Part shown: one piece after another, positions 5,642 through 55,603 of the stretch
Layout: each line of letters opens with the position of its first letter
Numbering within the stretch: the first letter of the stretch is position 1
Assembly: GCF_902713615.1 (NCBI RefSeq)
Contig: NC_052158.1
Span: forward strand, 51,898,539-51,962,538
DNA from: Scyliorhinus canicula
Taxonomy: Eukaryota
Direction of reading: 5' to 3'
Length of the DNA: 64,000 nt
Program-made: the position numbers and the translations under genes
The notes under the pieces: model-generated
Told to the model about the DNA's origin: nothing
Seen by the model: only the letters and a program-made list of their open reading frames with translations
The model's database searches: none

Positions 5642-7490
5642 AAAACAGATCCTTGTGGCACACCACTAGTAATTGGACACCAGTCAGAGCATTTCCCATC
5701 AACCACCACTCTTTGTCTTCTATCAGCTAGCCAATTTCTGATCCAAACTGCTAAATCACCCTGAATCCCATGCCTCTGTATTTTCTGCAATAGCCTACCG
5801 TGGGGAAACTTATCAAACGCTTTACTGAAATCCATATACACCACATCAACTGCTTTACCCTCATCCACCTGTTTGGTCACCTTCTCGAAGAACTCAATGA
5901 GATTTGTGAGGCACGACCCACCCTTCACAAAACCATGTTGACTATCTCTAATCAACTTATTCCTTTCCAGATGATTATCCATCCTATCTCTTATAAACCT
6001 TTCCAAGACTTTTCCCACAACAGAAGTAAGGCTCACTGGTCTATAGTTACCGGGGTTATATCCACTCCCCTACTTGTACAATGGGACAACATTTGCTATC
6101 CTGCAGTCCTCTGGCACTATTCCTGTAGACAAAGATGACTTAAAGATCAAAGCCAAAGGTTCAGCAATCTCATCCCTAGCTTCCCAGAGAATCCTAGGAT
6201 AAATCCCATCCGGCCCAGGGGACTTATCTATTTTCACACCTTCCAGAATCGCTAACACCTCCTCCTTATGAACCTCAAGCCCTTCTAGTCTAGTAGCCTG
6301 TATCTCAGTATTCTCCTCGACAACTTTGTCTTTTTCCTGTGTGAATACTGACGAAAAATACTCATTTAGCACCTCTCCTATCTCTTCGGACTCTACGCAC
6401 AACTTCCCACTACTGTCCTTGACTGGCCCTACTCTGACCTTAGTCATTCTTTTATTCCTGATATACCTATAGAAAGCTTTAGGGTTATTCTTGATCCTAC
6501 CTGCCAAAGACTTCTCATGTCCTCAATTGGCTCTTCTTAGCTCTCTCTTTAGAGCCTTCCTAGCTAAAGTGTAACTCTCAAGCGACCCAACTGAACCATC
6601 ACGTCTCATCTTCACATAAGCCTCCTTCTTCCTCTTGACAAGTGTTTCAACTGCTTTAGTAACCTGTGGTTCCCTCACGACTTGGGGCTGCTCCCCCTCC
6701 CCCTTAAGGATCCCGAAAACACGATCTGAGACATCGCGGACCCTGGCACCTGGGAGGCAAAACACCAACCGCGAGTCTCTCTCGTTCCCACAGAATCTCC
6801 TATCTATCCCCCTAACTATGGAGTCTCCAATGACTAATGTTCTACTCCTCTCCCCCTTCCCTTCTGAGCAACAGGGACAGACTCTGTGCCAGAGACCTGT
6901 ACCCCATGGCTGACCCCTGGTAAGTCCCCCCCCCAACAGTATCCAAAGCGGTATACCTGTTACTAAGGGGAACGATCCCTGTACTGACTGCTTACCCCCA
7001 GCCCCTCTCACCGTCACCCATCTATCTTTATTCTTTGGCGTAACTACCTCCCTGAAGCTTCTATCTATGACCCCCTCTGCCTCCCGAATGATCCGAAGTT
7101 CATCCAGCTCCAGTTCCCTAACACGGTTTTTGAGGAGCTGGAGTTGGGTGCACATCCCACAGATGAAATCAGCAGGGACACTGACGGCATCCCTCACCTC
7201 AAACATTCTGCAGGAGGAGCATTGTAGTGCCTTCCCTGACATCACCTCTAGATTAAAAAAAACAAGAAAAAGAAAGGAAGAGCTTACCTGATATTCCCTC
7301 AAACCCTGCTCCCGCTGAAAGGTAAGCAAATTTAAAGGCACTCACTCACCTTCACGACAGGCCCCTGCTCCCGCTTCCCAACGACCGTGGCTTTTTTTTT
7401 TGGTTAGAGGAGGAGGTGGGGGGGAGAAACACTGAGGAAGTGTTTCGGGTTTAACTGTCACTTGACAACAGCCCCTCCACAAACCACGTT

Positions 7491-8070
7491 CAAATTAGGC
7501 TGACCGCACTGCACGTATGCAAATTTACCCAGAACAGCCAATCAGTAGCTCTGCTCTGCTGTCCTCTGCTGGATGCTTGCCTTCACTCGAACTCCTCGGG
7601 TCTCTTTCGCAGGTACACCTTAAAATTAGGCTCACCGCACTGCACGTATGCATTAGCTCTGCTCTGCTGCCCTCTGCTGGATGCTTGCCTTCACTCAAAC
7701 TCCTCGGGTCTCTTTCGCAGGTATACCTTCAAACTAGGCTGACCGCACTGCACGTATGCAAATTTCCCCGGAACAGCCAATCAGTAGATCTGCTCTGCTG
7801 CCCTCTGCTGGATGCTTGCCTTCACTCGAACTCCTCAGGTCTCTTTCGCAGGTACACCTTCAAATAAGGCTGACCACACTGCACATATGCAAATTTCCCC
7901 AGAACAGCCAATCAGTAGCTCTGCTCTGCTGCCCTCTGCTGGATGCTTGCCTTCACTAGAACTCCTCGGGTCTCTTTTGCAGGTACACCTTCAAATTAGG
8001 CTGACCGCACTGCACGTATGCAAATTTCCCCGGAACATCCAATCAGTAGCTCTGCTCTGCTGCCCTCAGC
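7491..8070. repeat. ~130-bp tandem repeat, ~4.6 copies, carrying octamer and CCAAT motifs
   Basis: Units start at ~7491, 7620, 7731, 7861 and 7992; ATGCAAAT at 7517, 7756, 7887 and 8018; (A/T)CCAATCAG/GCCAATCAG ~20 bp later; copy 2 has lost both motifs. Confidence 0.9.
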
Positions 8071-11519: not shown

Positions 11520-14500
11520 CCACTTTAAATCACATACTTGATTTCGACACCGATGACCCGAAGGCGCCTTTTCAAGTCGGCATCATAAGAAAAAACAGGG
11601 TGTACCCAAAGCACAGAATCAGCCTCTACTGATACACAGCATCGATCCGGATGACGAGTGGTGTGCCACCCTTACGGTCAACCGGTCCCAAATACGGTTC
11701 CACCTGGACCGCCTCAAGCAGCAGCTGCAAGACCTTCAGGACCAAGGAGTGATCTCCAGGGTCACGGAACCGACCGACTGGGTCAGTTCCATGGTATGTG
11801 TAAAAAAGCCTTCCGGCGAATTGAGAATTTGCATTGATCCCAAGGATCTCAATCGCAATATCATGAGGGAGCACCATCCAATTCCAAAGCGCGAAGAGCT
11901 CACATGTGAAATGGCTCACGCCAAGCTCTTTACCAAACTCAACACCTCAAAAGGATTCTGGCAAATCCAGCTTGATGAATCTAGCAGCAAACTCTGCACG
12001 TTCATTACCCCCTTTGGAAGATATTGCTACAACAGAATGCCGTTTGGGATCATCTCTGCGTCCGAGGTGTTCCATAGGATCATGGAACAAATCATGGAAT
12101 GGATTGAAGGTGTTCGCATCTATGTCGATGACATAATCATCTGGTCCACCACCCCGCAGGAGCACGTTAATCGCCTCCAGCGCATCTTCAGACGGATACA
12201 TGAACATGGCCTCTGCCTCAACAGAGCCGTGCTCTTTTGGTCAGACAGATATCAAGTTCCGAGGGGATCACATCTCCCAATTGGGTGTGCAGCCGGATGC
12301 GGACAAGGTAGCTGCCATCACAGCTATGAGAACGCCAGAAGACAAGAAGGCGGTCCTCCGGTTTTTGGGGATGGTGACATTTTTAGGGAAGTTTATCCTT
12401 AACCTCGCCTCTCACACCACGGCTCTCAGGAACCTGGTCAGGAAGACGACAGACTTCCAGTGGCTCCCTGCCCACAAGCGTGAATGGAGGGAACTCAGAG
12501 CTAAACTAACAACGGCCCCGGTCTTAGCTTTCTTTAATCCAGCAAAAGAGACCAAACTTTCGACAGATGCCAGTCAGTCCGGCATTGGAGCCGTGCTCCT
12601 GCATCGTGATGCGGCCTTATCATGGGCCCCTGTTGCATATGCGTCGTGGGCAATGACCCCACGGAGCAGCACTACAAGCAGATAGAAAAGGAATGCCTGG
12701 GCCTTCTGACCGGTGTTGTGAAATTTCACGATTATGTCTATAGGCTTTCTCAATTCACCGTTGAGACCAACCATCGCCCGCTGGTCAATATAATACAGAA
12801 GGACTTGAACGACATGACGCCTCGCCTCCAGCGTATTCTGCTCAAGCTCCGGAGATAAGACTTCCAGCTGGTGTACACCCCGAGCAAGGACCTCATCGTT
12901 GCGTACACTCTCTCCAGGTCAGTCAACACTCCATATGACCCAGTGGGGTTTGTCTGCCAGGTTGACGCCCATGTGGCATTCGCGGCCTCCAATCGCCCTG
13001 CCTCAGATGAACGCCTTGTCCAAATTCGCTGCAAAACGGTAGCTGACCCCCTGCTACAGCATGTCATGCACCACCTGATGGACGGGTGGCTCAAGGGTCA
13101 ATGCCCTCAGTTCTATAACATCAGAGACGATCTGGCTGTAATAGATGTGGTTCTTCTGAAACTGGACCGCATTGTGATCCCGCTTAGCATGCACCAGCTT
13201 GTCCTGGAACAATTCCGCGAGGGCCACCTGGGCGTGGGGAAGTGTCGCCGACGGGCCAGAGAGGCTGTGTACTGGTCCGGTATCAATGATGACATCGCCA
13301 ACACAGTGCTCGACTGTCCCACCTGTCAGCGCTTTCAGCCGGCCCAACCATGAGAGACACTGCAGCCCCATGAGTTGGTCACGTCACCTTGGACCAAGGT
13401 GGGCATCGACCTGTTCCACGCGCTGGGGAGAGACTATGTCCTGATCGTGGACTACTTTTCAAGGTGATACGGTTGCACGACCTCACTTTGTCCGCAGTCT
13501 TTCGGGCATGCATAGAAACCTTTGCTCGACACGGCATCCCACTCACGGTGATGTCAGACAATGGCCCCTGCTTCACCAGCCAGGAATGGTCCAGCTTTGC
13601 CTGGTGGTACAATTGTGCCCATGTGACGTCCAATCTCCTGTACCCCCAATCCAACGGCAAAGCGGAGAAGTGAGTACACATCGTCAAGAGGCTCCTATGC
13701 AAGGCTGCCGATGCTGGGTCTGATTGCTACCTTGCCTTACTGGTCTATCGCTCCTCTCCCCTGTCCACTGGCCTGTCGCTCCGCCCCCCTGTCCACTGGC
13801 CTATCGCTCCGCCCCCCTGTCCACTGGTCTATCGCTCCTCTCCCCTGTCCACTGGCCTGTCGCTCCGCCCCCCTGTCCACTGGCCTGTCGCCAGCCCAAC
13901 TACTCATGAATCGCACCCTGAGGATGACGATGCCGTCCATCCATGTCCCAGACCTCGACCACGTCCCGGTTCTTCGCCGGATGCAGCTGTCTCGTGCACA
14001 GCACAAGGCGGCTCATGACTCCCGTGCCGCTGATCTCCCCGCTCTCGCTCCAGATGACAACATTCGCGTCCATCTTCCGGATGGTGGCTGGTCTGCAACC
14101 GCTGTTGTCCTTAGGCAGGTGGCCCCCCCGCTCATTTCTGGTTCGGCTACCAGATGGCTCTGTTCTGCGCAGCAATCGACGCGCCCTTCGCCTCATTCCA
14201 CGCCCGCCACGTGATCCTCCGGTGTTGCCTCGCCCTCATGCTGACCCTGCCACGGACTGTGCAGAGTTTCCTGTCACTCTGCCTCCCCCTGACTGTGATG
14301 CCGTCCAGCCCGCTCCTGAACCGGCGGCTCTCGACCCACCCCTGAGGCGGTCAACCAGAATTCATCGCCCACCTCAGAGACTAAACTTATGAACTTTGCA
14401 AAGTTATGGACTCTCTGACTTGTTTTGTTGCCTTGTTTGATCGTTTTCCTGGTTAATGCTGTTCTCGTTCCTCTTGTTGCATACTGCTTCTCTGCACCAG

Positions 14501-20719: not shown

Positions 20720-21178
20720 ATAGGGTGGATACCTGAGTTTGTGTAGGGTGATCATTGCTCGGCACAACATCGAGGGCCGAAGGGCCTGTTCTGTGCTGTA
20801 CTGTTCTATGTTCTATGTTCTATAACTGAGCAAGCACTAGAGGGAGCACGGGAGAGCTATAAATACACAGGGACAGGAAGTGAGGCCACACTTCACGGAA
20901 GGCAGAACTCGTAGCACCTTTGAGACTACGAGCTTTATTAAGACACGAGGAACAACACAGAGTGTGCTGCGGTGAAGCAGAGGATCCGTCCGATGGAGAA
21001 TCCGGCCCAGAGTATTCAATTCTGGTCACCACACTACCAGAAGGAAGTGGAGGCTTTGGAGAGGGTACAGAAGAGGTTTACCAGGATTTTGCCTGGAATG
21101 GAGGGCATTTGCTATCAGGAGAGGTTGGATAAACTCAGTGTGTTCTCACTGGAACGACGGAGGTCGAGAGGCAACCTG
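20720..21178 (+). mobile_element. HE1 tail, LTR-like fragment (TATAAATA at ~20857) and short CR1 RT fragment
   Basis: HE1 3' end at 20720-20823; IQFWSPHYQKEVEALERVQ at ~21010-21178. Confidence 0.6.
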
Positions 21179-22109: not shown

Positions 22110-22981
22110 ACGGTCACGTGTTTTCGTGTATCTGAGGAGTCTGAAGGCGGAAGTTGCAGGAGACGCACCTGAAGCTGGGGAATCAGACGAGGCTGAGGAA
22201 GGAATGGGTGGAACAGGTGTTCCACTCAGGGCTGGATATGAAGATGAGGGGGATAACTCTGTTGGTTAACAAGATGTTGGCTTTTGTGTTTGGGAGCTTT
22301 GTGTGGCCTATCCGGCTGCTGGCGGATGAGGGTGTGTGTGTGAGCGGGTGAGGGCTGCTATTCGGGGTATGTGGAGTTGAGCGACACAGGGAAGGACACA
22401 GCCGGCATGCTGTGGAGGGCACTTGATTCGGGTGCATAGGGAGAGGGTGGAGCAGGAGGAGAGAGCAAGGATGGTCGTTGAGATTCTGAGGGTGGATTGG
22501 AAGCACTCGGTGTTGAAGGAAGAGGGGCTGCTAAGAGAAAGACGGAAGCTCCAGATGGAGTTTGGATTAGTGTCCATGTGGAAGGCAGTGGGTATTGAGG
22601 AGGGCCAGATGGACAGTGTAGGAGTACGGGAAGAAGGCAAGCAGGATCCTGGCCCAACAGTTGAGGGAGCAAGCAGCGGTGAGGGAGATTGGTAGGGTGA
22701 GGGATGAGAGGGGTAAGGTGGTGATGGATCCGGAGTGGGTGAATGGGCATTTGAGGTCTTCAATAGGAGACTGTACGAGTCAGAGCCACCGGCTGGCGAG
22801 GAGGGGGTGCGGCGATTCCTAGATAGGTTGGAGTTCCCTAAGGAGGAGAGGCTCCAATTGGCCTAAGGGAGATGATGGTTGACATGATTGTGATGCAGGC
22901 CAGGAAGGCCCCAGTCCTGTACATGTTCTCAGTAGAGTTTTATAAGTTTGGTGCCGAAATGGAACTACTGCTGGTGAGGAT
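22110..22981 (+). mobile_element. L1 relic, left part (endonuclease region), split by the provirus
   Basis: LQETHL motif at ~22155; the reading continues across the TSD into 36184 (ctggtgaggat|gtacaacaag). Confidence 0.8.
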
Positions 22982-23844
22982 TGTAGCCACCTGGATTGGC
23001 CACTTCCTCACACAAAATGGAAGGACGCAAAGGTTACAGGGAAAAATGGACATTGGCAAAGAAACAAGCAGTTTACAGAATTCCCTGTATTCTAGCTGCT
23101 AAAGAAACCAGACAGAATTGTAACTAACACGGGCAGCAGGGTAGCATGGTGGTTAGCATAAATGCTTCACAGCGCCAGGGTCCCAGGTTCGATTCCCGGC
23201 TGGGTCACTGTCTGTGCGGAGTCTGCATGTCCTCCCCGTATGTGCGTGGGTTTCCTCCGGGTACTCCGGTTTCCTCCCACAGTCCAAAGATGTGCGGGTT
23301 ACGTGGATTGGCCAGGCTAAATTGCCCTTAGTGTCCTAAAAAAAAAAAATAAGGTTAATGGGGGGATTGTTGGGTTACTGGTATAGGGTGGATACGTGGG
23401 CTTGAGTAGGGTGATCATTGCTCGGCACAACATCGAGGGCCGAAGGACCTGTTCTGTGCTGTACTGTTCTAATTCTAACAAGCTGCGCATATTAAGTGAG
23501 CGATTCACGGTGATTCCCAGGCACAATGGACACAACAGTTAACTGCAATCGCTACATTCTATAGAAGGTCAGACATCCCGGCGCCAGTTCCCTTATCCAG
23601 ATAAGTATTGGCCTGTTAGTGGTAGTGATAGCCTAGTCTTTTAGTTTTATATGCATGAGTAGTAGATAACTGTATTATAATAAACGCGTCTTGTTTGAAC
23701 TTACTAACTGGTGTATTGAGTTATTGGTCTGAACCTGAACTTGAATCTTGTGGCGGTATCATAAGGATACCTGGCGACTCTAGAGCTAAGGAATAAAACA
23801 GAGCTAAATTGAGTGTAAAGTACACTCACCCAGAACGAGCAACA
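22982..23844 (+). mobile_element. 5' LTR (HE1 insertion at 23131-23474; ~400-bp internal deletion)
   Basis: Colinear with 35274-36183; SINE flanked by CTAACA direct repeat. Confidence 0.93.
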
Positions 23845-23849
23845 TTTAG

Positions 23850-23872
23850 TGGCGAACTCTGACGGGACTCGA
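23850..23872 (+). promoter_or_regulatory. Primer-binding site, tRNA-Arg(UCU)-like
   Basis: TGGCGAACTCTGACGGGACTCGA versus the complement of the vertebrate tRNA-Arg-TCT 3' end as recalled (TGGCGACTCTGGTGGGACTCGA); 5 nt after the LTR. Confidence 0.6.
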
Positions 23873-23878
23873 CTAGAA

Positions 23879-23912
<34 letters not shown>

Positions 23913-24185
23913 ACTCCGAGAGAACCCAACAATTTGAATCAGAAATCCAATTGGGAAAAGGAAAAACCACAAGTGTTCAAGTAGTTCACATCAATCCTCA
24001 TAATTCGGAAGTGTGTTTTTTGCATGCGTAACTAACAGGGTTATAATGTAAAACCGAGATATTTTTGTAGCGACAAACTGTCGGGAGTTTATAATTCGGA
24101 AAATAGCAAAAGCCGTACCCGTATTTTATAGCATTGCCTTAATATCCCTCGTTCCAAATTTAAAAGAGAGCATAAGATAGAAGAA

Positions 24186-25860
24186 ATGGCCATGCAGGCA
24201 ATGGAACGCCTCATGAACCCAGAGCAGTTCGTGGTCGCAGCAACCAGCAGCAGCAGAGTAGTTCAGTGTCCCGTTTGGGAGCTGGAACTCAGGAAGTACC
24301 TCAAAGGGAAAGGAGGTGAGTTTTGTTCGAATGAGGAGATAGGTCCCGGGAGTATAGGGCATATTTGGTGGGAGAACCTGTCTAAAATTCATAAGAAAGG
24401 TTTGAGTAAAACACGTAAGCCGATGGCAATTGTGCCCTGCTTGGCACAATTGTGAGGCACAGAGGAGGTCGTCAGGACGCTCCGAGCAGATTTAGAGGAG
24501 AGTAACAGAATGAGCAAAGTGGATGTCAGGGACATCGAGAGAGAGAATTTAGAATTAAGGCAAAAGTTGGCAGATAAGGATAGAGAGGTGGATGATTCCA
24601 AGAGGGCACACCAGTCTTGTCTAGCCCATCTGAGCAGCTCCCAGGTACAATACGAAAAAGCCTATCAAGATGTGCAGTGTGCAGTCTTGATAAGACAAGA
24701 ATCAGAGAAGCAGGTAGAGACACTGAAGAAGCAGTGTTGCAACCTGAAGGCAGCTTTAAGGGCACTCCATGCTGCCACCACTGAGCAAAGGTAAAGCACA
24801 GTGGACCATGCTAAGTGTAGGAAACAGATTGCGGAGCTGCAATCTCTGCTTTCTGTGCAGAATGGCTTCCAAAAAACTTTGGAACACAATTAGAGGAAGA
24901 GAATGAACCAGATTGGCAGGAGTTAAGCAAGACAGCACAGCGATATGTTCAGGGAACATGTGCACTAGAAACGCAGCAGAAAAGGGAAGCGCCCAAACCC
25001 CCCACAGATCAGATAGCACCCGCACCAATGAACCCAATCACTACCCAACGAAAAGCAACCGCAGACGGCGCACCCGAGATCACCTACACCACCCCCTTAA
25101 CCGTGACTCAACTAAGGGACGCGTGTGAGAAAATCACCCCGTTCCTCCCCACCTCAGACCCCCACCAATTCTTTGCAAGAGTTAAACAACAGGGGACCAT
25201 GTACGGCCTCGATGCGCGAGAGCAGGTTAAGCTCACAGTTGAGTTTAGACTCATCAGTAGTTGCAGCCCTCCCCGACCCACAGAACGTTGGAGGAGGCAC
25301 CCTCGAAGAAATGCATACAGCTATTTTGGATGCAATAGGATATAACAGAGGAGACCCAGTTGAAGGCCTAAACAAGTGTAGGCAGAAAAAGACCGAGCAC
25401 CCCACAGCATTCGCAGGAAGGCTGGGGATTCACTTCACTGCAGTTTTCGGTGAATTAGACCACGCACATTTGACCGAAGATAACATGGTTAAATGGACCC
25501 GTACTATTATCTCCCACGCCACAGAGGCAGGACAGAAAGCCTGCTCTAATTAAGACCCCTCAGAAGAGACCCATAATTAAAAATTGGTCTTGAAAAGATT
25601 GTCCCGCGCTTGGGAGTAATCTGTGCACAGTAAGAGCTCACCAAAACCCCGCATGGGTAAACGAGGGACAGAACAGCCCCCCACAGAAGTCACAGGAATG
25701 TTTTAACTGCGGACAGTTAGGGCATTTTGCTAGAGAATGCAATGCACCACAAAAACCTCAGAGAGGCCAGCAGACAGGCACTCTGAACAGGAATAGAGCA
25801 AAGCCTATTCACAGTATAGGGACGCAGTCAGGACAGACCAATGTGTACGGAACAGACTGA
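24186..25860 (+). pseudogene. gag: gag (coiled-coil region, capsid-like region, one CCHC knuckle), several stops
   Basis: ATG at 24186; CFNCGQLGHFAREC at ~25698-25740; terminal TGA at 25858-25860. Confidence 0.85.
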
Positions 25861-28800
25861 CGGTGTTCGGGCTCCCCCACTTGGGTCTGTGACACACTCT
25901 GGGACACATCCGGATGACCGGTAGTCACAGCGAAAATTCGGGGAAAGCCCATAGAGTTACTCTGGGATACAGGAGGGTCCCGCACGACCATTAATTCCTC
26001 CACTACACCACAGGCAGACACGTGGCCCACAACAGCCACAATAACACTCAGCGAATTTACAGGACACTCACAGCAAGGAACCATTACAGCCCCTCTACCA
26101 ATTCAGCTAGGGAATATCTCCACCAGTTGTTTTAGTTGATCTGCCCCACACAGCAGAACACATGCTGGGCATTAATTTTATGAATGCACACAGCCTGTCG
26201 TTCGACCCAGTCAATCAGTGTGTCTGGCGAATGGCAAGGTCTGAAAGAGCACCCGCAATGCTCACAGTAGGTGAGTATGAAAATAGGATTAGCGCAGTAG
26301 GCGACTATTGTTTTGACCCGACCACGCTCAGCATGACAAACAGGTTAGGGCAGTTTTAAACAAACACAGGACAGCATTTGCCAGTCACCATCACGACTGC
26401 GGCAGGATGACTGGACAAGTTCAGATTACAGGACCTGACCCGAGACCACAAAGACAGTATAGATTTCCCCTGGAAGCAGAGGAAGAAATTGGAAAGGTTA
26501 TAGAGAGCTTATTAGAGCAGGGCGTACTAAGGACAGTAGCCTCCACTAATAATGCCCCTATTTGACCAGTGAGGAAGCCCGACGGATCATGGCGTCTGAC
26601 CATTGATTATCGGGAACTCAACAAAGTTACCCCAGCAGTAGCCCCCATGGTAGCAACAAGTCCCGAGACCATGCTCAAGCAGGGACTCAACTCCAAGTAT
26701 TTTACGGTTTTGGACATTAGCAACGGCTTTTGGTCAATCCCATTGGCGAAGGCGTGCCAGTACAAATTTGCCTTTACTTCTAAAGGTCAGGAGTGCACGT
26801 GGACATGCCTCCCACAAGGATTCCACAACTCCCCCTCCATTTTCCACCGACAGCTGGCAAATGGACTAGCAAAATTTTCCCAACCCGAATGTCTGGTACA
26901 GTATGTGGACGACCTATTACTGCAGACAGACACCAAGGAAGAGCACATCATGCTTCTGTCTGAACTCCTACAACTCTTACAGTCAATCGGATGTAAAGTA
27001 AACCCCAGAAAGGCCCAACTATTGGAGAATAAAGTGATGTATTTGGGTACAATCATCACGCATAGCAAACGCGAGATTGAGTTCAAAAGAATTGACTCGA
27101 TCGTCAAATTGCCCCTTCCCCAAAATGTTTCAGCCCTCCGGTCATTTTTAGGACTGGTTGGGTATTGTCGGAACCATATCGATGGTTTTGCGACCAAGGC
27201 AGCCCCACTTTCAGACCTCCTTAAGAAAGGAGCCCCTTGGGAATGGCTTCTGCAGCATACAGAGGCTTTGGAAGATTTAAAGAAAGCCCTTAGCGCAGCT
27301 CCTGCACTACAAGTTCCAGGCCCGCTTTCCCCCTATGCAATTGAGGTAGCAAGCACAGATCTGACCCTCTCGGCCGTGCTCCTTCAGGAACGGCACGAGC
27401 AGCTACGACCAGTGGCTTATGCCTCCAGACTTTTAGACCCAGTAGAGCAAGGATTTTCAGCCTGCGAAAGGCACCTACTTGCAGTATTCTGGGCAGTACA
27501 GAACTTTTCTTACATTACCGGACTAAACCCCATAACGATTCTGACCGAACACCCCCCCACACAGCTTCTATTGGATGGACGACTGAAGGACGGTTCAGTT
27601 AGCCAAATTAGAGCAGCTAGGTGGACCCTTCTTTTACAAGGAAGGGACATCACAGTTAAACGGACTAAGACACACCTTCTCAGCAGACAACCTCCAATAC
27701 CCAGGACAACCCCATGATTGCGAGATAGTACCCCCCTCCACAACACAGGACCCTTCATTGCAAAGACACCCCCCAAGAAGATAGGAAGTTCAACTCAAAG
27801 CCCCCAGCACACAGACACGTGTGGTGTGTCCCCTTGTAGATTTATGTGGATGGTTCATCCACTGTTTTTAATGGTGAGCGCATTACAGGATGCGGCATCT
27901 ATGTAGAAGTGCACAGGGACGCGCATTAGAAGAGATATCTTTAAAGTTACCTGGTCACTTAGGCACGCAGGCAGCAGAACTCACGGCCATAGCTTACATA
28001 GTGGACCACCCAGATTCGTTCCCCAGCCCAGCAGATATATATTCTGACAGTCTATATGTCTGCAACAGTTTAACGGATTTCCTACCCATGTGGAAGACAA
28101 GAGGCTTTGTTTCCGCGGATGGAAAGCCCCTTCCATCAGCCCCATTGCTCCGCCATATCCTAGAACAGGCAAAGGATAGGATTTACGGAATAATTAAAGT
28201 AAGAAGTCATCATCGGTCATCCCCCCTGGAAATGTGAAAGCCGACGCACTGGCTAAAGCAGGTTCCAGGCACGGACATTTTTGGACACCCCCAGCTAGCG
28301 CCCCAGCTAGCGCCCCTGTGAGTTCAGTTCAGGTCTCACAGACAGACATTGAGGATCTAGTACAGGCACAAAGACAGGACAGCAATCTCAGGGAGATTAG
28401 TAGAGGAAGGTTTTTGGCCCCTTACGACAAGTTTAAACACGCTCTGACCACACACGAGGGTGTGGTTATGAACGATAAATTGTATGTGGTTCCTGTGAAA
28501 GACACGAATCAAATTATTGCCTTATTCTGTTGCACGTTTTACTATGGGCGTAAAACGCGTTTATTGGAGTGTATTAACACGCCTCCGAGTTCGACGTGTG
28601 CTTAACACTGCTAGGCTCTGTTCTATGTAATTATTTAAGCTCTGGAGTCGCCAGCTGCCGTATAGGCAACGTCACAAGTATTCCAAGGTCAAATTCAAAG
28701 TAATAAAGATGATACACCGATTAGTCAAGTTCAAACGATCAATATTTATTATACAGTTAATAATAAATACTCATGCACACACACTAAGAGACTAAGCTAC

Positions 28801-31055
28801 AACTAAACATAAGCAAACAGAATACTTATCTAACAGGAACAGGCAAGGTCAGAGAACGAGGCCTTCGTCCTGGTTTTGTCTGCAGCCTTCAGCAAGCGTT
28901 CTGGCACTTGGGAGTCTAGCGGGCTTGGATCGCGTAGCGAGCGTTGAACTTACGGTTTCGGCGGCTGGTGCTCAACGGCTGGAGTCAGGATACCAGGTGT
29001 CAGTCGGGGCCGGAGCACAGGTTTAACAGACCGGACAACACGAGGTCCCTATCTTTTATAGGGGTTCCGTTGTCCTTCCCTCTTCTCGGGCGGGCTCTAC
29101 CTATTGGATCAATTTCTTATCGATACTGGATTAATTCCCCAATGCGAGGGGGTCTCCGTGATGGAGGGGGCGTTTCTTATGTCCTTTTGTTCGGAGGTTT
29201 CTGGTGCCTCGATGTCTGGGTCTTGATTGGAATGTGTCCATTCAGAACCAAATGTATCTATTGTGTGGGTGTTCAAGTCTGATGGCCTCATTAGCATGCA
29301 AAGCGTTTTGCCATTTGCACCTAGCTAAGGTCTCTTCACCTGAGCCCAAACTGGTTTCTGCTGCTGCAGAATGCAAACTGCTCTTTGCAGACTGCTGTTC
29401 TGGCTGAACTGTCTGTTTCTCAGCAGCCTTCCATTTTAGTTTGGCTCAGTGTCCATTTTGCGTGGCCAGCATGGCTACAATTCCATGACAGTCATGGACA
29501 TCAAGGGATAGACCCCACCACAGCCCACCTGAGACAGCTCTGTTGGTGGCCAAATTTGAGAGAGGATGTAACACATTACATCGATAATTGTTTAATTTGT
29601 GCACAGAATAACCCGGAGAGGTATTCAAAGAAGGCACAGCTCAGTTACTCTCGCCCCGTTAATGGCCCCTGGACAAACCTCCAGATCGATTTTATAGGAC
29701 CATTGCCCCCTTGAAGGAATGGCTATAAATACGTACTGGTGGTCATTGATACGTTCACGAAATGGGTAGAGGCTTTCCCATCTCGAACTAACACAGCCAA
29801 AACTACCGCAAAGATCCTGACACACCACATCTTTACTAGATGGGGACTCCCCAGAAGTATTGAGTCGGACCAGGGATCACATTTTACAGGACGGGTCATG
29901 AAGAAAGTCCTGACCATATTCGGCATTAAACAAAATTTCCACATTGTGAACCACCCCCAGTCCAACGGTATAGTGGAACGCATGAATCGGACTCTAAAAT
30001 CGACCCTTAGAAAGATGGTCCAGGAAAACAGTACAACTTGGGATTCGGTGCTCCCATTCGCACTTATGTTCTTAAGGAATACGGTTTCAGCTTCAACAGG
30101 TTTCATCCCACACACACTCATGACCGGACGCCCCATGAAAGGTTCTGAATTCCTTTTAGGACTTTACATGACCAGCCCAGATGTGACGCCCCTCACACAC
30201 GAGACAGCAGTAAAGCAATTAGTGGAAAATGTAAGATCGGCTCAATTAACAGCCGCAGTTAAATTGGGAAAGAAAAAGAAACAGAGCAAGGCTTGTTTCG
30301 ACAGAACAGTACATTCCACAGAGTTTCAGGTTGGACAACAGGTAATGTTATCTGTGTATAACCCCAGCATGTTTTTGGCCCCAAAATGTTCCGGCCCGTA
30401 CTCAATTGTGGACAAAATCAGTCCGTCAGTATATAAGATAAAGTACCCCAATGGGAAGACTGCCTGGTTCCATATCAACCAGTTAAAGGCATATGGAACA
30501 CAGTCCAACCACACACACCATGTCCTGCTAGATGCAGCAGAACACCACGCCCCGCCCACAAGAGTCACATTTCCACCCTCCCCCTCACAGACCAGCACCT
30601 CATCGGACTCGACCTCGACTCCGCCCATTGACTTCAGACCACGCCCCGAAACGCCCACAAGCTGCCACAGCAGAGACAGCGACTGTGACTCTGACGACAG
30701 CCACAGCATGCCTCTCTACTGCCCTGATACAACAGACCCCACACACACCGACTACGAACCTGACTCCAGTGATTTGGAGATCACTTACATTAAGACACCA
30801 GACCCACACCCAGACCCACCGCCCAACTATGACGACCCCGACAACGTTCACACAAATTTGGACACGACAATTTGGCACCGAGACAACTCTTACAGGCTCG
30901 TCCGGAATGACGAGAAAGACCCTCGGTCACACAACTCACTCATAGCATGCCTGATCCATACAAGGTTATGGGATCCGGGAGAAGAGGATGACTTTAAGTC
31001 TGACTCCCGACACGGCAACCCCTTTGCGCCCCTGTTCGCAGAAGATAATGATTGA
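25861..31055 (+). pseudogene. pol: pro-pol: protease, RT, tether, RNase H, integrase with long C-terminal extension
   Basis: LLWDTGGS; LDISNGFWSIP, LPQGFHNSP, YVDD; degenerate RH (EVAS/ERHL/TEH); second RH (YVDGSS at 27843, QAAEL, YSDS, KADALAK); IN HHCC, IDFIGP, SDQGSHF, ERMNRTLK, GPY. Confidence 0.92.
28528..29479 (-). mobile_element. Antisense solo LTR of a related family inserted between RH and IN
   Basis: TG...CA ends; TSD ATTC at 28524-28527 / 29480-29483; removing it restores NQIIALF|HDSHGHQG; minus-strand TATAAAAG and AATAAA. Confidence 0.9.
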
Positions 31056-31893
31056 GGTGTCCAGATGATGTAAAAAGAGGAACCGCTTGAGAGATAAACG
31101 GTGTCCTTTTCTGATGGAACCTGCAGTATGTTTGTTGCATGTTTGTTTGTTTGTGTTTTGTTTGTTTTCCAGCAACAGTAACTCTGCAGCCACTTGCACA
31201 GTTTGTCCGCCGATACCCACGGGAACTTGCCAAGCTTGCTGGTCAGCTAGGACAGCTGAGAGCTTGCCCGGACCCCATTTCATAACTGCTCTTCTGTTTG
31301 GAGGACAGAAGAGGCAACCCCAATGATGACTACATTCTTGCCCATTCGTTTCAGGTCGCTCAGGCAGTGGAGAAACGGCATTGGGGACCCGCCCTGTCTG
31401 AGGACCACCCCACTGGTCCACTAAGCTTGGGTACAGCACAGCACGCCCTACCCGGGGATTCCACCCAAATCTTACCCGTCGTGGCCCATACGCAACTCAT
31501 TCGAAACTCTTATTTCTAAAAAGTTTGGTTTTGTTTCCTTTGTTTAGGTAGCCCTTTGGTTGCCATTCCAGATGCTATTTACATCCATGAACATTGGGAT
31601 GGTAAATTGCAAAGCCTGCAAGACGGCTCGCAGTGGTACAGTATTTGAGTATATGCCTGGTCCTAAATTTGTTTAGAAAAAAAAATGAGGGGAGTCACAG
31701 GGAGTGACTTGACCATTCATAAAGGGAAATTGACACAAGAGGACAGATATACTATCATTCGAGGTATTAAGCAGAACACTAACAGACACTATGTTTGATC
31801 CCATAGCTTTCGGACGTTCGAATGAGCGACCAAAGCAGGATCAGAGCAGGGTCAAAGCACTAAAAGAGAACAGGAAGAGAAGAGAGAAGGAAA

Positions 31894-32229
31894 ATGACAA
31901 CGCCTACTGTATTTTTCCTTTTAATATGTTCATATTTGCACGCAAACGCGAACCCCCTTTCCCCTATGACCCCGGCCGTTAATGTTTCCCAGACACAGAC
32001 CACTCCAAGCCCAGTAGACGGCAACAGTACCCCGACCTGGTGTACCAGATATCTAACTTGGTACTCCTTGTCATATGTCGTAGAGTCACTTTTGGCACTA
32101 GCGATTGTCTGCATCATAGTTCAGACCCTTCGGATAAGGAGAGCATACCGCTCTCGCGCCTTGACAGTATATAGAATGCAATCCCCTATTTTCGGATTTC
32201 ACCAGTCCCCCCAACCCCTTGACGTGTGA
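31894..32229 (+). CDS. Small predicted type-I membrane glycoprotein (111 aa) in the env position
   Basis: Hydrophobic signal (VFFLLICSYLHANA), S/T/P-rich ectodomain with NVS and NST sequons, TM (SLSYVVESLLALAIVCIIVQTL), basic stop-transfer RIRR; A at -3. Confidence 0.6.
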   Translation: MTTPTVFFLLICSYLHANANPLSPMTPAVNVSQTQTTPSPVDGNSTPTWCTRYLTWYSLSYVVESLLALAIVCIIVQTLRIRRAYRSRALTVYRMQSPIFGFHQSPQPLDV

Positions 32230-32416
32230 TAAAGGATTTATTTTTGCGTTTGTTGTCTTGTAAATAAAGGAACTTTTCAATTGATTGTAACACTGAGCTC
32301 GACTGCCGAGCCAGAGAAATGGAATGTAATACTACTATTGTTTATAAGGTTAGGAAGTTAGGATGTTTTAAAATGTTTGAGTGAGTATAGTTTATCAAGG
32401 ATAGTTAGAGGGCCCC

Positions 32417-35118
32417 GAATAAGGATGACATCCGGGCAATAGTAAGGGATGACATCGGTGCTATGGAGGATAAGGTTGAATCCATTTGGGTGGAAATCAG
32501 GAATAGTAAGGCGAAAAAGTCACTGATAGGAGTAGTCTATCGGCCACCAAATAGTAACGAGATGGTGGGGCAGGCAATAAACAAAGAAATAACTGATGCA
32601 TGTAGAAATGGTACAGCAGTTATCATGGGGGATTTTAATCTACATGTCGATTGGTTTAACCAGGTCGGTCAAGGCAACCGTGAGGAGGAGTTTATAGAAT
32701 GTATCCGCGATAGTTTCCTAGAACAATATGTAATGGAACCTACGAGGGAACAAGCGGTCTTAGATCTTGTCCTGTGTAATGAGACAGGATTGATTCATGA
32801 TCTCATAGTTAGGGATCCTCTCGGAAGGAGCGATCACAATATGGTGGAATTTAAAATACAGATGGAGGGTGAGAAAGTAAAATCAAATACTAGTGTTTTG
32901 TGTTTAAACAAAGGAGATTACAAGGGGATGAGAGAAGAACTAGCTAAGGTAGACTGGGAGCTAAGACTTTATGGTGGAACAGTTGAGGAACAGTGGAGAA
33001 CCTTCCAAGTGATTTTTCACAGTGCTCAGCAAAGGTTTATACCAACAAAAAGGAAGGACGGAAGAAAGAGGGAAAATCGACCGTGGATATCTAAGGAAAT
33101 AAGGGAGAGTATCAAATTGAAGGAAAAAGCATATAAAGTGGCAAAGATTGCTGGGAGATTAGAGGACTAGGAAATCTTTAGGGGGCAACAGAAAGCTACT
33201 AAAAAAGCAATAAAGAAGAGTAAGATAGAGTATGAGAGTAAACTTGCTCAGAATATAAAAACAGACAGTAAAAGTTTTTACAAATATATAAGACAAAAAA
33301 GAGTGGCTAAGGTAAATATTGGTCCTTTAGAGGATGAGAAGGGAGTTTTAATAATGGGAAATGAGGAAATGGCTGAGGAACTGAACAGGTTTTTTGGGTC
33401 GGTCTTCACAGTGGAAGACACAAATAACATGCCAGCGACTGATAGAAATGAGGCTATGACAGGTGAGGACCTTGAGAGGATTGTTATCACTAAGGAGGGA
33501 GTGATGGGCAAGCTAATGGGGCTAAAGGTAGACAAGTCTCCTGGCCCTGATGGAATGCATCCCAGAGTGCTAAAAGAGATGGCTAGGGAAATTGCAGATG
33601 CACTAGTGATAATTTACCGAAATTCACTAGACTCTGGGGTGGTCCCGGTGGATTGGAAATTAGCAAACGTGACGCCACTGTTTAAAAAAGGAGGTAGGCA
33701 GAAAGCAGGAAATTATAGGCCAGTGAGTTTAACTTCGGTAATAGGGAAGATGCTGGAATCTATCATCAAGGAAGAAATTGCGAGGCATCTGGATAGAAAT
33801 TGTCCCATTGGGCAGACGCAGCATGGGTTCGTTAAAGGCAGGTCATGCCTAACTAATTTAGTGGAATTTTCTGAGGACATTACCAGTGCAGTAGATAACG
33901 GGGAGCCGATGGATGTGGTATATCTGGATTTCCAGAAAGCCTTTGACAAGGTGCCACACAAAAGGTTGCTGCATAAGATAAAGATGCATGGCATTAAGGG
34001 TAAAGTAGTAGCATGGATAGAGGATTGGTTAATTAATAGAAAGCAAAGAGTTGGGATAAATGGGTGTTTCTCTGGTTGGCAATCAGTAGCTAGTGGATCC
34101 TCAGGGATCCGTGTTGGGCCCACAATTGTTCACAATTTACATTGATGATTTGGAGTTGGGGACCAAGGGCAATGTGTCCAAGTTTGCAGATGACACTAAG
34201 ATGAGTGGTAAAGCGAAAAGTGCAGAGGATACTGGAAGTCTGCAGAGGGATTTGGATAGGTTAAGTGAATGGGCTCGGGTCTGGCAGATGGAATACAATG
34301 TTGACAAATGTAAGGTTATCCATTTTGGTAGGAATAACAGCAAACGGGATTATTATTTAAACGATAAAATATTAAAGCATGCCGCTGTTCAGAGAGACTT
34401 GGGTGTGCTAGTGCATGAGTCACAGAAGGTTGGTTTACAAGTGCAACAGGTGATTAAGAAGGCAAATGGAATTTTGTCCTTCATTGCTAGAGGGATGGAG
34501 TTTAAGACTAGGGAGGTTATGTTGCAATTGTATAAGGTGTTAGTGCGGCCACACCTGGAGTATTGTGTTCAGTTTTGGTCTCCTTACTTGAGAAAGGACG
34601 TACTGGCGCTGGAAGGTGTGCAGAGGAGATTCACTAGGTTAATCCCAGAGCTGAAGGGGTTGGATTATGAGGAGAGGTTGAGTAGACTGGGACTGTACTC
34701 GTTGGAATTTAGAAGGATGAGGGGGGGATCTTATAGAAACATTTAAAATTATGAAGGGAATAGATAGGATAGATGCGGGCAGGTTGTTTCCACTGGCGGG
34801 TGACAGCAGAACTAGGGGGCATAGCCTCAAAATAAGGGGAAGTAGATTTAGAACTGAGTTTAGGAGGAACTTCTTCACCCAAAGGGTTGTGAATCTATGG
34901 AATTCCTTGCCCAGTGAAGCAGTTGAGGCTCCTTCATTACATGTTTTTAAGGTAAAGATAGATAGTTTTTTGAAGAATAAAGGGATTAAGGGTTATGGTG
35001 TTCGGGCCGGAAAGTGGAGCTGAGTCCACAAAAGATCAGCCATGATCTCATTGAATGGCGGAGCAGGCTCGAGGGGCCAGATGGCCTACTCCTGCTCCTA
35101 GTTCTTATGTTCTTATGT
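32417..35118 (+). mobile_element. CR1 LINE (APE+RT, 5'-truncated) inserted in the provirus 3' region
   Basis: ORFs 32463-33170, 33303-34145, 34093-34746 and 34751-35023; tail (TTCTTATG)n. Confidence 0.94.
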
Positions 35119-35273
35119 CCCCTATGACATAGCGCCAAATAGAGATTGTGGATAAAAATTTTCTGCATAGTTGAGGAAAGTGCAGAGGCCATGGAACTCG
35201 CTGAGGTCAGGGAACGGAGACACCGTACTTAGGTGATCCTTCACGCTTTCGCGTTAGGATCACAAGGAGGGAG

Positions 35274-36183
35274 TGTAGCCACCTGGGTTGGCCACTTCCT
35301 CACACAAAATGGAAGAACGCAAAGGTTACAGGGAAAAATGGACATTGGCAAAGAAACAAGCAGTCTGCAGAATCCCCTGTATTCTGGCTGTATACAGAAA
35401 CCAGACAGAATTGTAACTAACGAGCTGCGCATATTAAGTGAGCGATTCACGGTGATTCCCAGGCACAATGGACACAACAGTTAACTGCAATCGCTACATT
35501 CTATAAAAGGTCAGACATCCCGGCGCCAGTGGAGTCTGAAACAAAGGACACAAATAAGGTGGAAGGAACCGCCCAGTGATCGAGGAATAGCCCCGTTATT
35601 GGGGAAATTCAAATCAATCGATTGGGAAGAGACCCAATCGATTGAAAGTTTATAGAGGGTCCGCCCAGAAGGGCGCGAAGCCCCTGGGACCTACAAAAGT
35701 CAGATCCCAGGACTGATTCGTTCTTCTTGACCAGCCGGCACTCCCAGCAGAACACCTTTGCAGCAGAAGACCTTGAGAAGGAGAGGCCTGGTCAGCAGCC
35801 GCCATCAAGTAAGTGTCATACAATGCACGCTACGAGGGTAGACACTCCTGACCCCTTTAGTCCACAACTATTGGAAACCTGCGGATCCAGGACAAAGCTA
35901 GAGGCCATTGTTCCCTGATCCGGCAGTTCCCTTATTCCAGATAAGTATTGGCCCGTTAGTGGTAGGATTAGCCTAGTCTTGTAGTTTTATATGCACAATT
36001 AGTAGATAACTGTATTATAATAAACGTGTATTGTTTGAACTTACTAACTGGTGTATTGAGTCATTGGTCTGAACTTGAACTTGAATCTTGTGGCGGTATC
36101 ATAAGGATACCTGACGACTCTAGAGTTAAGGAATAAAACAGAGCCATTTGAGTGTAAAGCACACTCACGCAGAACGAGCAACA
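35274..36183 (+). mobile_element. 3' LTR, preceded by PPT AAGGAGGGAG (35264-35273)
   Basis: TG start after the purine tract; TATA-like CTACAAAAG at ~35690; AATAAA at ~36018 and 36132; ends CAACA followed by the TSD. Confidence 0.93.
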
Positions 36184-37470
36184 GGATGTACAACAAGGTG
36201 AGAGAGTGGGGTCTCCCCCCCCTACATTGTCGCAGGCTTCCATCCCCCTAATTTTAAAGAAGGATAAGGACTCTGAGCAATGTGGGGCACACTGCTGAAT
36301 GTCACTTCTGAAAGCTGATGGAAAGCTGTTGGTGAAGGTTCTAACATCACAAATTGAGGACTGAGCATCGGGGATGATAGGGGAGAACCAGACGGGATTT
36401 GTGAAGGGAAGGCAGTTGTCAGCAAATGTGCTGGGGCTGATTAATGTAATGATGCCCCGGAGGGGGAGGAGGTAGAAGCAGTGGTTATGGATGTGGGGAA
36501 GGCTTTGATCAGGTGGAGTGTGTGTATTTATTGGGGGTGCTGGGGCAGGGGTTTGTGGATTGGTCCGGCTGCTGTACAGAGCATCGGTGGCGAGTGTTTG
36601 GACGAACTGGATGAGTTTGAGGTCACATCGTGGGGCGAGACAGGGGTGCCCGCTCTCCCAGTTGCTTCTTGCCTTGGCGATAGAGCCTTTACAATGGCGC
36701 TTCGGGTGTCGAGGGATTGGAAAGGATTGAGCAGGGAGGTGCTGAGCATACGGTTTCATTATATACGGACAATTTGTTGTTATATCTTGGACCTGCTGGG
36801 CAGCATTGGAGAGATTATGGAGATTTTGGGGGACTTTGGTTGTTTCTTGGGGTATAAGTTGAACATGGGGAAGAGCAAAGTATTCCCAATCAATGCTGGA
36901 GGGCAAGGACGGAGATTCGGGCAGATGCCGTTAAGAGTGGTGGGGGCCGAGCTTTAGGTGTTTAGGAATCCAGATGGCATGGAGCTGGGCCCAGCTAAAC
37001 AAATTGAACTTGGCATGATTGTTAGGGGGAAGTAGGTGGATTTTAAGAGGTGGGATGTGTTGCCGCTGTCGCTGCTGGGTGTGTGCAGACAGTACAAATG
37101 GCGGTGCTGTTCAGGTTTCTGTTCGTGTTACCGAGCCTCCTTATCTTTCTCGACAAGTTCTTTTTCAGGAAAGCTAATGGGATAATTTTGGGGTTTGTGT
37201 GGCCGGTGAAGACCCTGTGAGTGACGCAATTGTTCTTGGAGAAGGTAGAGAGGAGGGCATTGCCGAATATCATAAATTACTTTTGGCCGATGAATATTGT
37301 GGAGGAGAGCTGGCCTTTGGCGGGGGGGAGGGTGGGGGGGGGGGATCGGTGGATGGAGGCGGTGGCGTGTCGGGGAAAGAGATTAAGGGCACAGTTGTTG
37401 CCACCTCTTCTGTTCTCACCGGCCAGGTACTCCATGAGCCCATTGGTGGTATCAGCATTAAGGTGGGGAG
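36184..37470 (+). mobile_element. L1 relic, right part (RT region)
   Basis: RGARQGCPLSQLLLALAIEPL; FLGYKLNMGKS. Confidence 0.85.
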
Positions 37471-53152: not shown

Positions 53153-53268
53153 AATGAATAATTTTACAAGATACTGAACTGCACCCAGATTCCACCCGAG
53201 GGGGTACAGTAAACACCAGCTGGAAAACTCCAGTTTCACCACTCACTATTGATCAATAATACTCATAC

Positions 53269-53323
53269 CTTTAGGCAGTGGCATTGGTTGAAGAGTTTGA
53301 TGAGGAATCACCTTTATCAGAAG
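53269..53323 (-). CDS. MHC class I cytoplasmic exon 2 (stop codon at 53271-53273)
   Basis: TTAACAG| acceptor, |GTATGA donor; phase 1 reads (T)SDKGDSSSNSSTNATA*, the serine-rich tail typical of shark UAA-type class I. Confidence 0.85.
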
Positions 53324-53369
53324 CTGTTAATGGAAGAACAAGCATTAATAAACTGTTTACCATCAGTGG

Positions 53370-54223: not shown

Positions 54224-54415
54224 CAGATGGTGACGCACAGAAACGCAAGAGAATGCAGGTCACACACAAACACAGTCAGAGGGTGTGGGGGGGGGGTGTC
54301 ACACAGCGATGAAGACAGATCTATAAATTGAACACTGAACAGATACAAAGTGAGCAATATTTCCTATTTTCTTTACACAGTTAGATGAAGATGCAGTGGT
54401 TTGAGATAAACTTAC

Positions 54416-55511: not shown

Positions 55512-55603
55512 ACTATATCTTACACCTACCCAGTTCCCCACTGCTTCCCACATTTGCAGCATCCGGAGTCCCTTTGTCCAGCGTGCAACTGCCCATTTCC
55601 TAC

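Follow-up and report, generated by a model that had tools for sequence, protein, structure and literature searches.

An aged env-less provirus of the catshark genome and the conserved small open reading frame in the env slot of its family

A retrovirus-like element with a tether, a second RNase H and no env lies at positions 22,982 to 36,183 of a 64,000-nucleotide stretch of the catshark Scyliorhinus canicula genome (contig NC_052158.1; hereafter the window, whose numbering is used throughout, features being on the forward strand unless stated). It raises the question of where among the retroviruses such an element belongs, and what its family might use in place of Env. Paired LTRs, a 4-bp target duplication and gag and pol domains were all found, which confirms a provirus, and this provirus is an aged, broken copy in a large endogenous retrovirus family of the catshark genome. 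The reading preferred here, which we give an even chance, is that of a decayed copy of an env-less family of basal Retroviridae, in which a selected small membrane-protein gene in the env slot aids capsids in reaching or crossing a membrane.

Structure of the provirus and later insertions

The provirus is flanked by the target-site duplication GGAT (22978..22981 and 36184-36187), and a 4-bp duplication is also found at 13 of the 14 other family elements for which both ends were found. The 5' LTR (22982..23844) contains a later SINE-like insertion (23129..23474), recognized as a gap between LTR blocks and repeated in part at 20720-20808, and is without ~390 nt that the 910-nt 3' LTR (35274..36183) has. 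Both LTRs have TG..CA ends; 24 of their 521 aligned sites differ (4.6%; K2P 4.8%), slightly less than the 5-7% estimated by eye in the sequence-only reading, whose view that the insertion is old nevertheless holds. The primer-binding site (23850..23871, 5 nt past the LTR) varies between copies and is likely of tRNA-Arg type; no tRNA gene match was obtained for the variant of the 22982-36183 copy, and the assignment rests on the variant of another family copy, to which the 3' end of a tRNA-Arg(TCT) gene of the same genome is complementary. The polypurine tract is at 35264..35273. An antisense solo LTR (28528..29479, minus strand; target duplication ATTC) lies in pol and matches a younger subfamily of the family at 99% over 952 nt; the insert had been correctly recognized, but its end had been put at 29483, and 29480-29483 is its target duplication. 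A later LINE insertion (32425..35115, ends approximate), which we take to be CR1, carries an endonuclease and RT and is not at this place in other copies.

The gag gene (24186..25860) is broken by stops and frameshifts, has no Gly2, and includes an N-terminal coiled-coil region, whose only matches are weak ones to coiled-coil families, and one CCHC knuckle (25699-25740); one Gag piece compared with SnRV Gag showed no similarity. At the gag-pol junction (25858..25863) an in-frame UGA followed by CGG, a type II readthrough context (PMC13517186), forms a predicted readthrough site, and TGACGG is present in 31 of 35 matched junctions among 60 loci. The protease region (25861..26300) is frameshifted, with a DTG motif near 25967 that recurs in other copies. 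The reverse transcriptase (26455..27243; PF00078, E 9e-33), with YVDD at 26902-26913 and one stop at 26563-26565, is followed by the tether (27244..27660), a Gypsy-type RNase H fold without catalytic residues that matches PF17917/PF17919 and aligns with the MMLV connection domain. The degeneracy that had been noticed in this copy is echoed by an EVAS-like motif in 27 of 35 other copies, so that the tether is dead family-wide. The second RNase H (27834..28270) is a separate domain, as had been proposed from its DGS, QAAEL, YSDS and KADALAK motifs, and matches PF00075 at 33.9 bits against a cut-off of 25.8; these four acidic motifs are spread over three frames in this frameshifted copy and are present in 29, 28, 28 and at least 28 of the 35 other copies, the misses being no-match rows. 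The integrase (29484..31055; stop at 29712-29714) has H2C2, a DDE core (rve), GPY/SH3 and a long acidic Pro/Thr tail, and its GPY motif and the single Gag CCHC had likewise been read correctly. By known retrovirus biology, tRNA-Arg would prime reverse transcription, Gag-Pol would be made by UGA readthrough, the second RNase H would remove RNA while the tether serves structurally, and integration would make the 4-bp duplication.

Position among retroviruses

LTRs, primer-binding site, polypurine tract, target duplication and tether plus second RNase H are Retroviridae traits, the last pairing being ordinary for retroviruses, and env is the one missing. Three RT trees, with loki, foamy, SnRV, class I, class II and Gypsy rows and without ERV-L, ERV4, Odin or fish foamy-like sequences, were built under LG+G and a mixture model; loki rows were labelled via motifs in the supplement of the loki paper and by clustering with such rows. 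All three placed the provirus inside canonical Retroviridae, with loki excluded (support 100/98, 100/99 and 100/99), at an unresolved base shared with SnRV, Ovex1-like, frog and coelacanth elements. The family is very probably a basal canonical Retroviridae lineage near SnRV and Ovex1-like elements. The sequence-only reading had offered a loki-like or a basal retroviral lineage; the latter stands, the RT being deep among canonical retroviruses, and the former falls, the AU test rejecting the window and its closest relative joined to loki (p 0.0057; p 0.017), while the wider lineage joined to loki is borderline and not rejected (p 0.053). Its distinction of a retroviral provirus from Gypsy is upheld by an RT outside the standard Gypsy clade in the trees, by the AU test (p 0.004) and by a dead tether beside a separate second RNase H.

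The RT motifs LDISNGFWSI and LPQGFH, previously called foamy-like, are present but in the SnRV form, LPQGFH being confined to SnRV rows in the alignments of the loki paper. The provirus RT is outside the foamy clade in all three trees, which hold no fish foamy-like ERVs, though the AU test does not reject a foamy placement (p 0.077); foamy membership is rejected by the Gag/pol layout, in which a CCHC is present and pol is joined in frame by UGA. The SnRV and clade Huo traits of one CCHC, an in-frame gag-pol stop and an allowed GPY-like motif (PMC2717909, PMC4299795) are present; the trees show a basal polytomy and no SnRV clade (AU p 0.38 for a 14-row group, 0.14 for window plus SnRV). ERV3/ERV-L and ERV4 are rejected on structure, since a 5-bp duplication with neither zinc finger nor GPY is expected of them and 4 bp (13/14), CCHC and GPY are found here. 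The assignment is to an env-less ERV by descent, not an infectious retrovirus, a label chosen because env loss is common among ERVs.

SnRV and clade Huo, including elephant-shark CmiERV lineage I (PMC6001957, PMC4422223), share RT motifs and 49-51% RT identity with family copies, and SnRV shares in-frame gag-pol with a stop, one CCHC, a primer-binding site starting TGGCGA and a non-myristoylated, coiled-coil Gag (PMC2717909). Unlike SnRV, the family has no env, its junction is UGA-CGG rather than UAG-GGC, and its RNase H and integrase are not SnRV-like. The nearest named Pol relatives are Ovex1-like bird elements and the "NYNRIN-like" Pol of frogs, coelacanth and turtles, a group that shares the RNase H side and basal RT tree region with the family; the frog and coelacanth Pol have 53-57% identity to it over RT and tether. 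Ovex1 differs in being single-copy and without a zinc finger, and in having a dead RT and a long ORF3.

Other parts of pol lean elsewhere. The second RNase H has its best PDB matches in foamy viruses. In a tree built on 146 columns, where the window was represented by only part of its domain, a 97/93 split separates this RNase H from SnRV and class I and puts it on the side of foamy and loki. The integrase scores 180-196 bits with loki against 100 with SnRV and 86-91 with foamy, and its tree, which has no row for CGIN1, the type expected of loki integrases, is a polytomy taking in loki; metagenome scans returned distant integrase relatives alone. Loki and Odin (PMC7947760, PMC9040795) resemble the family in having a tether and a second RNase H, in the type of the latter and in a similar integrase, Odin, known from sea anemones, also in being without env; BHIKHARI elements, which are related to loki, carry gag alone. 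A placement outside the canonical retroviruses, as a lokiretrovirus-like or Odin-like element, would accommodate these likenesses and the p of 0.053 for the wider lineage. This placement is nevertheless very unlikely and already largely refuted by the three RT trees and AU tests, the missing loki RT motif, and a loki survey of three cartilaginous-fish genomes that found none. Lokiretroviruses are rejected also by Env, no F-like env and no env-sized frame being present in sampled copies, and Odin by its RT being sister to loki, to which the window is not sister (an indirect argument, from trees without Odin sequences). An RT of canonical-retrovirus type is combined in this lineage with a foamy/loki-type RNase H and an integrase resembling that of loki; should the combination hold, the loki integrase may be ancestral instead of a later substitute, with consequences for the domain-swap scenarios that have been published.

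An env-less family and its small open reading frame

The absence of env reported for this copy extends to the sampled family. Among 39 copies fetched, 33 had both landmarks (integrase and LTR), and in 30 of these the interval was 1.16-1.85 kb with no open stretch above 214 aa; the other three had longer gaps, two of which contained frames of a LINE-like or other unrelated kind. A second sample of 20 loci included 15 with paired LTRs, where the interval measured 1.55-2.0 kb and open stretches did not exceed 280 aa. An SnRV Env segment found no match among 8 candidates in the catshark genome, which is weak evidence, and a PF00429 search gave 78 env matches, of which the 8 fetched belong to another family and have only the SINE-like insert in common with the env-less family. 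The family is large, recently active and transcribed, without env in sampled copies: LTR identity in the youngest copies reaches 99.7%, and reads from four raw RNA runs span the element from end to end, with one direction predominating in the 3 bulk runs. A search of indexed sequencing runs listed none from RNA. A pol-less derivative keeps gag and the small ORF (no RT or second RNase H in 10 of 40 examined matches, 9 of those with the small ORF). A literature search, to which Repbase, Dfam and subscription journals were outside, found no description of the family or of the small ORF; ERVs of the catshark in which neither Gag nor Env domains were detected are reported to group with fish foamy-like elements (PMC10699275).

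In the env slot, after a non-coding spacer (31056..31893) with an acceptor-like candidate site at 31547, lies a small ORF of 111 aa (31894..32229; 111-118 aa across copies), present in 17 of the 20 loci of the second sample; in a wider survey 150 of 5,375 first-look candidates were scored. Its predicted parts are a signal peptide, called from hydropathy alone, a short Ser/Thr/Pro-rich stalk with N-glycan sites, a Trp/Tyr-rich helix, a membrane helix, a basic patch and a conserved tail. The N-terminus is hydrophobic in 67 of 74 variants despite 12 sequence clusters, an N-glycan site is kept in 73 of 74, the patch behind the anchor has 5-7 K/R per 15 residues in 13/13 variants, and Gly2, for myristoylation, is in none of the 13. 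A structure model gives a helix at 49-95 with low confidence (pLDDT 62). Pfam, PDB, a viral fold library and ESM Atlas yielded nothing significant, and metagenome scans no relative of the small ORF.

The core of the small ORF is under purifying selection. Its dN/dS is 0.16 (codon bootstrap 0.10-0.23), against 0.98 and 2.46 in the other forward frames, for 56 copies picked by DNA similarity alone, the pairs of which are not independent; an earlier set picked by amino-acid pattern, which gave 0.17, was redone with this DNA-only picking, and an RT bin of 35 pairs (0.74) was set aside as probably reflecting a frameshifted row. The core is open in 7 of 12 pol-less copies and 8 of 13 core indels break the frame, as expected because of decay after insertion. 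The gene persists across subfamilies, in the derivative without pol and in another catshark, Scyliorhinus torazame (homolog P0390, 48% identity), and very likely encodes a working protein. No spliced read from leader to small ORF and no GT-AG joint was found (one joint of 2 reads, linking gag to a point just upstream of the ORF, contains additional letters and was not counted), and the spacer holds 14 ATGs upstream, both of which weigh against the preferred reading.

The conserved small ORF, the size of the family and its young copies had escaped the sequence-only reading.

Possible roles of the small protein

The small protein would sit in the membrane as a type I glycoprotein and, through its basic tail, recruit the non-myristoylated Gag there. 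That it acts in capsid-membrane traffic seems to us an evenly balanced proposition; that it is itself a fusogen is rather doubtful. As a stand-in for Env it might allow capsids to cross from one cell to a neighbour in contact with it, a route put forward for sORF2 of Drosophila MDG1-group retrotransposons (PMC11952523). These too are env-less retroelements with a ~110 aa protein, and sORF2 and FAST proteins share with the small ORF a short outer part, one membrane helix and a basic patch, and a place after pol in some insect elements. They differ in belonging to Metaviridae or other viruses, in being mostly myristoylated and in an outer part of ~30 residues; the small ORF, for its part, shows no sequence similarity to them, lacks Gly2 and has glycan sites and a predicted signal peptide. 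The boldest form of the proposal, which we think rather unlikely, is that a vertebrate retrovirus lineage swapped Env for a FAST-like small fusogen that carried capsids directly from cell to cell, such as out of the soma into the germ line, and later multiplied in the catshark genome together with a pol-less gag and small-ORF satellite. If the protein is a fusogen, Retroviridae would have their own equivalent of the sORF2 route of flies, in a lineage keeping the oldest RNase H type.

The same features would suit an accessory protein that modulates the host, by removing a restriction factor or immune receptor or by blocking superinfection, in a family that, as other env-less ERVs do, multiplies within germ cells. 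A signal peptide, glycosylated stalk and conserved cytoplasmic tail are fitting for viral immune-modulating membrane proteins; the top viral fold match is an adenovirus E3 glycoprotein, though at a non-significant E of 0.6; SnRV has several small accessory ORFs (PMC12193657); and the small ORF has diverged more quickly than pol, amino-acid identity between subfamilies being 48-67% for the former and 88-92% for the latter. No positive selection is seen, however (whole-ORF dN/dS 0.31-0.59), and the retention of gag and small ORF together in the pol-less derivative suits a joint structural role equally well, so that an accessory function is judged unlikely, if far from negligible. Env-slot position and an upstream acceptor-like site could instead point to a gutted Env, a signal peptide fused to the membrane-proximal region, anchor and tail and kept as a membrane anchor: the order of parts is that of the two ends of an Env, and the relatives SnRV and Ovex1 have env. 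Such an origin is improbable, since the small ORF has no similarity to SnRV Env and no likeness to the frames of the 8 genome env loci and 5 reference viruses (best E 0.46, 399 frames), and those loci hold no family DNA except the SINE-like insert; the protein-database search for relatives of the small ORF covered lengths of 61-207 aa.

Env loss is usually read as the passage from retrovirus to cell-bound retrotransposon; here a successful env-less family keeps a selected membrane-protein gene, and offers a vertebrate system for testing a recent open question, the movement of retroelements between cells without Env. Crocodilian ERV4 (PMC4299795) likewise has a membrane-protein gene under purifying selection in place of env, but its nectin3 is a captured host mRNA with three Ig domains, and the element duplicates 5 bp of its target and has neither zinc finger nor GPY.

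A minor point is the setting of the provirus in the MHC, suggested earlier: 37 of 40 MHC class I matches are on this contig, the nearest ~0.95 Mb off, and the setting is plausible, but incidental.

The small open reading frame in the env position

Neither space nor frame for env was found in any sampled copy of the endogenous retrovirus family to which the window provirus (22982-36183) belongs, in agreement with the sequence-only reading of an element lacking env. PF00429 has 78 scored matches in this genome; the eight that were checked are the gamma-type env of another ERV family (loci L256-L262). The env slot is occupied by a small open reading frame at 31894-32229 (+), absent from that reading, encoding a predicted membrane protein. 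In 13 variants it shows a hydrophobic N-terminus and then a stalk that is about half Ser/Thr/Pro and bears one or two N-glycan sites; beyond the stalk come a helix led by Trp-Cys, a single membrane helix, 5-7 basic residues and a tail that is conserved.

Purifying selection on the 66-codon core of this ORF is strong and specific to its frame: in 56 of 69 loci, chosen solely on DNA similarity, dN/dS is 0.41, 0.21 and 0.16 as distance rises, and the other forward frames of the core give ~1 and 1.3-2.5. Taken over the whole ORF, dN/dS is 0.31-0.59, so that selection there is less strong than on RT and integrase (mostly 0.07-0.26). The N-terminus has turned over into 12 clusters but keeps its hydrophobic character in 67 of 74 variants, as compared to 8 and 27 in the other frames. 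Among 4,481 candidates of 61-207 aa only one outside homolog was found, a gene model of Scyliorhinus torazame with 48% identity, and this match is the chief ground for regarding the host as a catshark. What is notable is this selected small membrane-protein gene replacing env in a young, large family.

A family-related pol-less derivative of 5.8-5.9 kb is arranged as LTR, gag, spacer, small ORF and LTR, and its gag has a different C-terminal end with two CCHC knuckles. The derivative is represented by loci L139, L152 and L245-L254, and 39 other matches extend across nearly the full 601-nt query at 94-96%.

Replication of the element would presumably follow standard retrovirus biology. That the small protein is accessory and host-modulating is conceivable but doubtful, and that it is a gutted Env is quite improbable; the favored role is delivery of capsids to a membrane or across it, because the gene lies in the env slot, Gag lacks Gly2, the derivative retains exactly gag and the small ORF, and there is a parallel in flies. 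Env-less fly retrotransposons move from soma into the oocyte, and the agent proposed for this is a small membrane protein with a basic tail (PMC11952523). The small protein differs from FAST proteins in its absence of a myristoylation motif and in its apparent signal peptide and glycans, and on these grounds was not assigned to that class.

Anatomy, age and activity of the family

The anatomy originally read from the window was borne out: the provirus lies within a 4-bp target duplication, the LTRs that bound it begin and end with TG..CA, and Pfam identifies a CCHC knuckle, RT, tether, separate RNase H and GPY/SH3 integrase. The integrase also carries a conserved ~185-aa acidic Pro/Thr/Asp-rich tail (30501-31055) without a Pfam match. 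The window copy is dead, with stops and frameshifts in gag and pol, and contains three later insertions: a SINE-like element inside the 5' LTR, a LINE before the 3' LTR, and an antisense solo LTR inside pol (28528-29479) that shares 99% identity over 952 nt with the LTR of a younger subfamily belonging to this same family. The LTR pair differs at 24 of 521 sites (K2P 4.8%). The insertion age is poorly fixed, since a mammalian rate gives about 11 million years and the shark rate assumed by PMC4422223, ten times slower, would give about 110 million years.

A 1.7-kb pol query yielded 4,933 first-look candidates, a figure that is not a copy number; all 40 that were scored are matches, non-window copies being 91-95% identical. 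The SnRV (snakehead retrovirus) RT query gave 144 scored matches in this genome, and all 20 fetched belong to the window's family, with RT amino-acid identity of 88-92% to the window RT and LTR pairs of 93-99.7% in 15 of the 20. By our own count 41 of the 144 matches sit in stop-free frames of at least 1,400 residues, and the family was thus active recently.

Reads from three bulk RNA runs, which cannot be assigned to single copies, span the entire element. Most of them point the same way, which is the sense strand provided that the libraries follow the usual stranded design. In run X23, gag-pol has a depth of ~15-50, the spacer after integrase one of 137-262 and the small ORF one of 58-70. 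In all three runs the peak depth of the element is in this non-coding spacer (7320-7979 of family locus L242). Oligo-dT bias and pol-less copies can account for the 3' rise. No splice joint was found in the RNA reads.

Placement of the lineage

The closest named Pol proteins are 'NYNRIN-like' models of frogs and coelacanth (53-57%); proteins of Xenopus, birds and turtles come next. RT trees were built from 71 of 81 extracted rows, from 82 rows, and from 36 rows under a mixture model; near-duplicate and partial rows were omitted, the later sets were thinned, and none contains Odin, ERV-L or fish foamy-like rows. Class II reference rows are taken to be such by their motifs. Foamy rows were labeled by comparison of L077 with PDB foamy Pol, together with its cluster, and the WDSV row is that of 12,708 nt. 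SnRV was assigned to P0025 by a by-eye match to the SnRV RT row in the PMC7947760 supplement, and to L070 by its length of 10,688 nt, the same as in PMC12193657; loki (lokiretrovirus) rows were labeled by motifs in the PMC7947760 supplement, plus rows clustering with them.

The three trees agree on a loki clade (100/99) and on canonical retroviruses (100/98-99) that include the window RT. In the 82- and 36-row trees the window RT shares an open polytomy with rows of SnRV, of Ovex1-like elements and of frogs, coelacanth and turtles, outside the foamy, class I and class II group (97/94 and 90/96, respectively). AU tests gave p 0.0057 and 0.017 for the window RT with loki, 0.053 for the wider lineage with loki, 0.077 for the window RT with foamy, 0.14 with SnRV, and 0.38 for a 14-row SnRV-like group; grouping with Gypsy was rejected (p 0.004). 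On these trees and tests, of the proposal of a loki-like or basal retrovirus, 'loki-like' fails and deep branching holds; the AU tests neither establish nor reject membership of 'clade Huo'. The lineage falls within a part of Retroviridae that has been described but is poorly classified.

The second RNase H is, as first read, a separate domain in Pfam, with top PDB scores against foamy RNase H, and a split with 97/93 support puts it on the side of foamy and loki, apart from SnRV and class I (four rows lacked an extractable domain). PMC7947760 calls this type the most ancient. A dual RNase H is ordinary for retroviruses. The integrase tree, which carries a long-branch warning, does not fix the position of the window copy but sets it amid rows of loki, frogs and coelacanth, at a distance from SnRV and foamy.

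Nine bird 'NYNRIN-like' Pol proteins near the window lineage (P0010, P0012, P0014-P0016, P0018, P0019, P0022 and P0024; four unnamed) lack the RT YxDD and fit the published Ovex1 description. The C-terminal 150 aa of the Pyxicephalus gene model P0001 runs from integrase through a hydrophobic stretch to what by eye resembles an Ig-like domain; this could be a membrane gene captured downstream of pol, or else a fusion in the gene model.

Gag-pol junction, primer sites and genomic surroundings

In 31 of 35 matched junctions the gag frame continues into pol through UGA-CGG, a known readthrough context (PMC13517186). Primer-binding sites vary between copies, one variant being complementary to a tRNA-Arg(TCT) gene of the same genome. 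The sites (window 23850-23871; L088-L152) differ widely and look like several tRNA-Arg types and hybrids with small indels. Five proviral 5' ends (L200-L204, near match 1501-1522) share ~45 nt with the intron-less 3' half of tRNA-Arg(TCT), reaching back to the anticodon loop; the usual primer site is 18 nt, far shorter, and reverse transcription may here have copied beyond its normal stop on the primer.

The provirus had been read as lying in the MHC. Of 40 matches to MHC class I, 37 are on the window's contig, and the closest is ~0.95 Mb away; since the family is spread across many contigs, the site carries no special meaning. Elsewhere in the window, an exon-like stretch at 55600-55710 (-) encodes a membrane anchor with a basic stop-transfer (P0408), which we take to resemble MHC transmembrane exons, and long tandem-repeat arrays at 53213-54331 and 59700-63628 give rise to spurious open frames. 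A separate decayed LTR-retrotransposon pol at 11557-14392, with YVDD, an RNase H with a DAS motif and H2C2, is Gypsy-like by eye.
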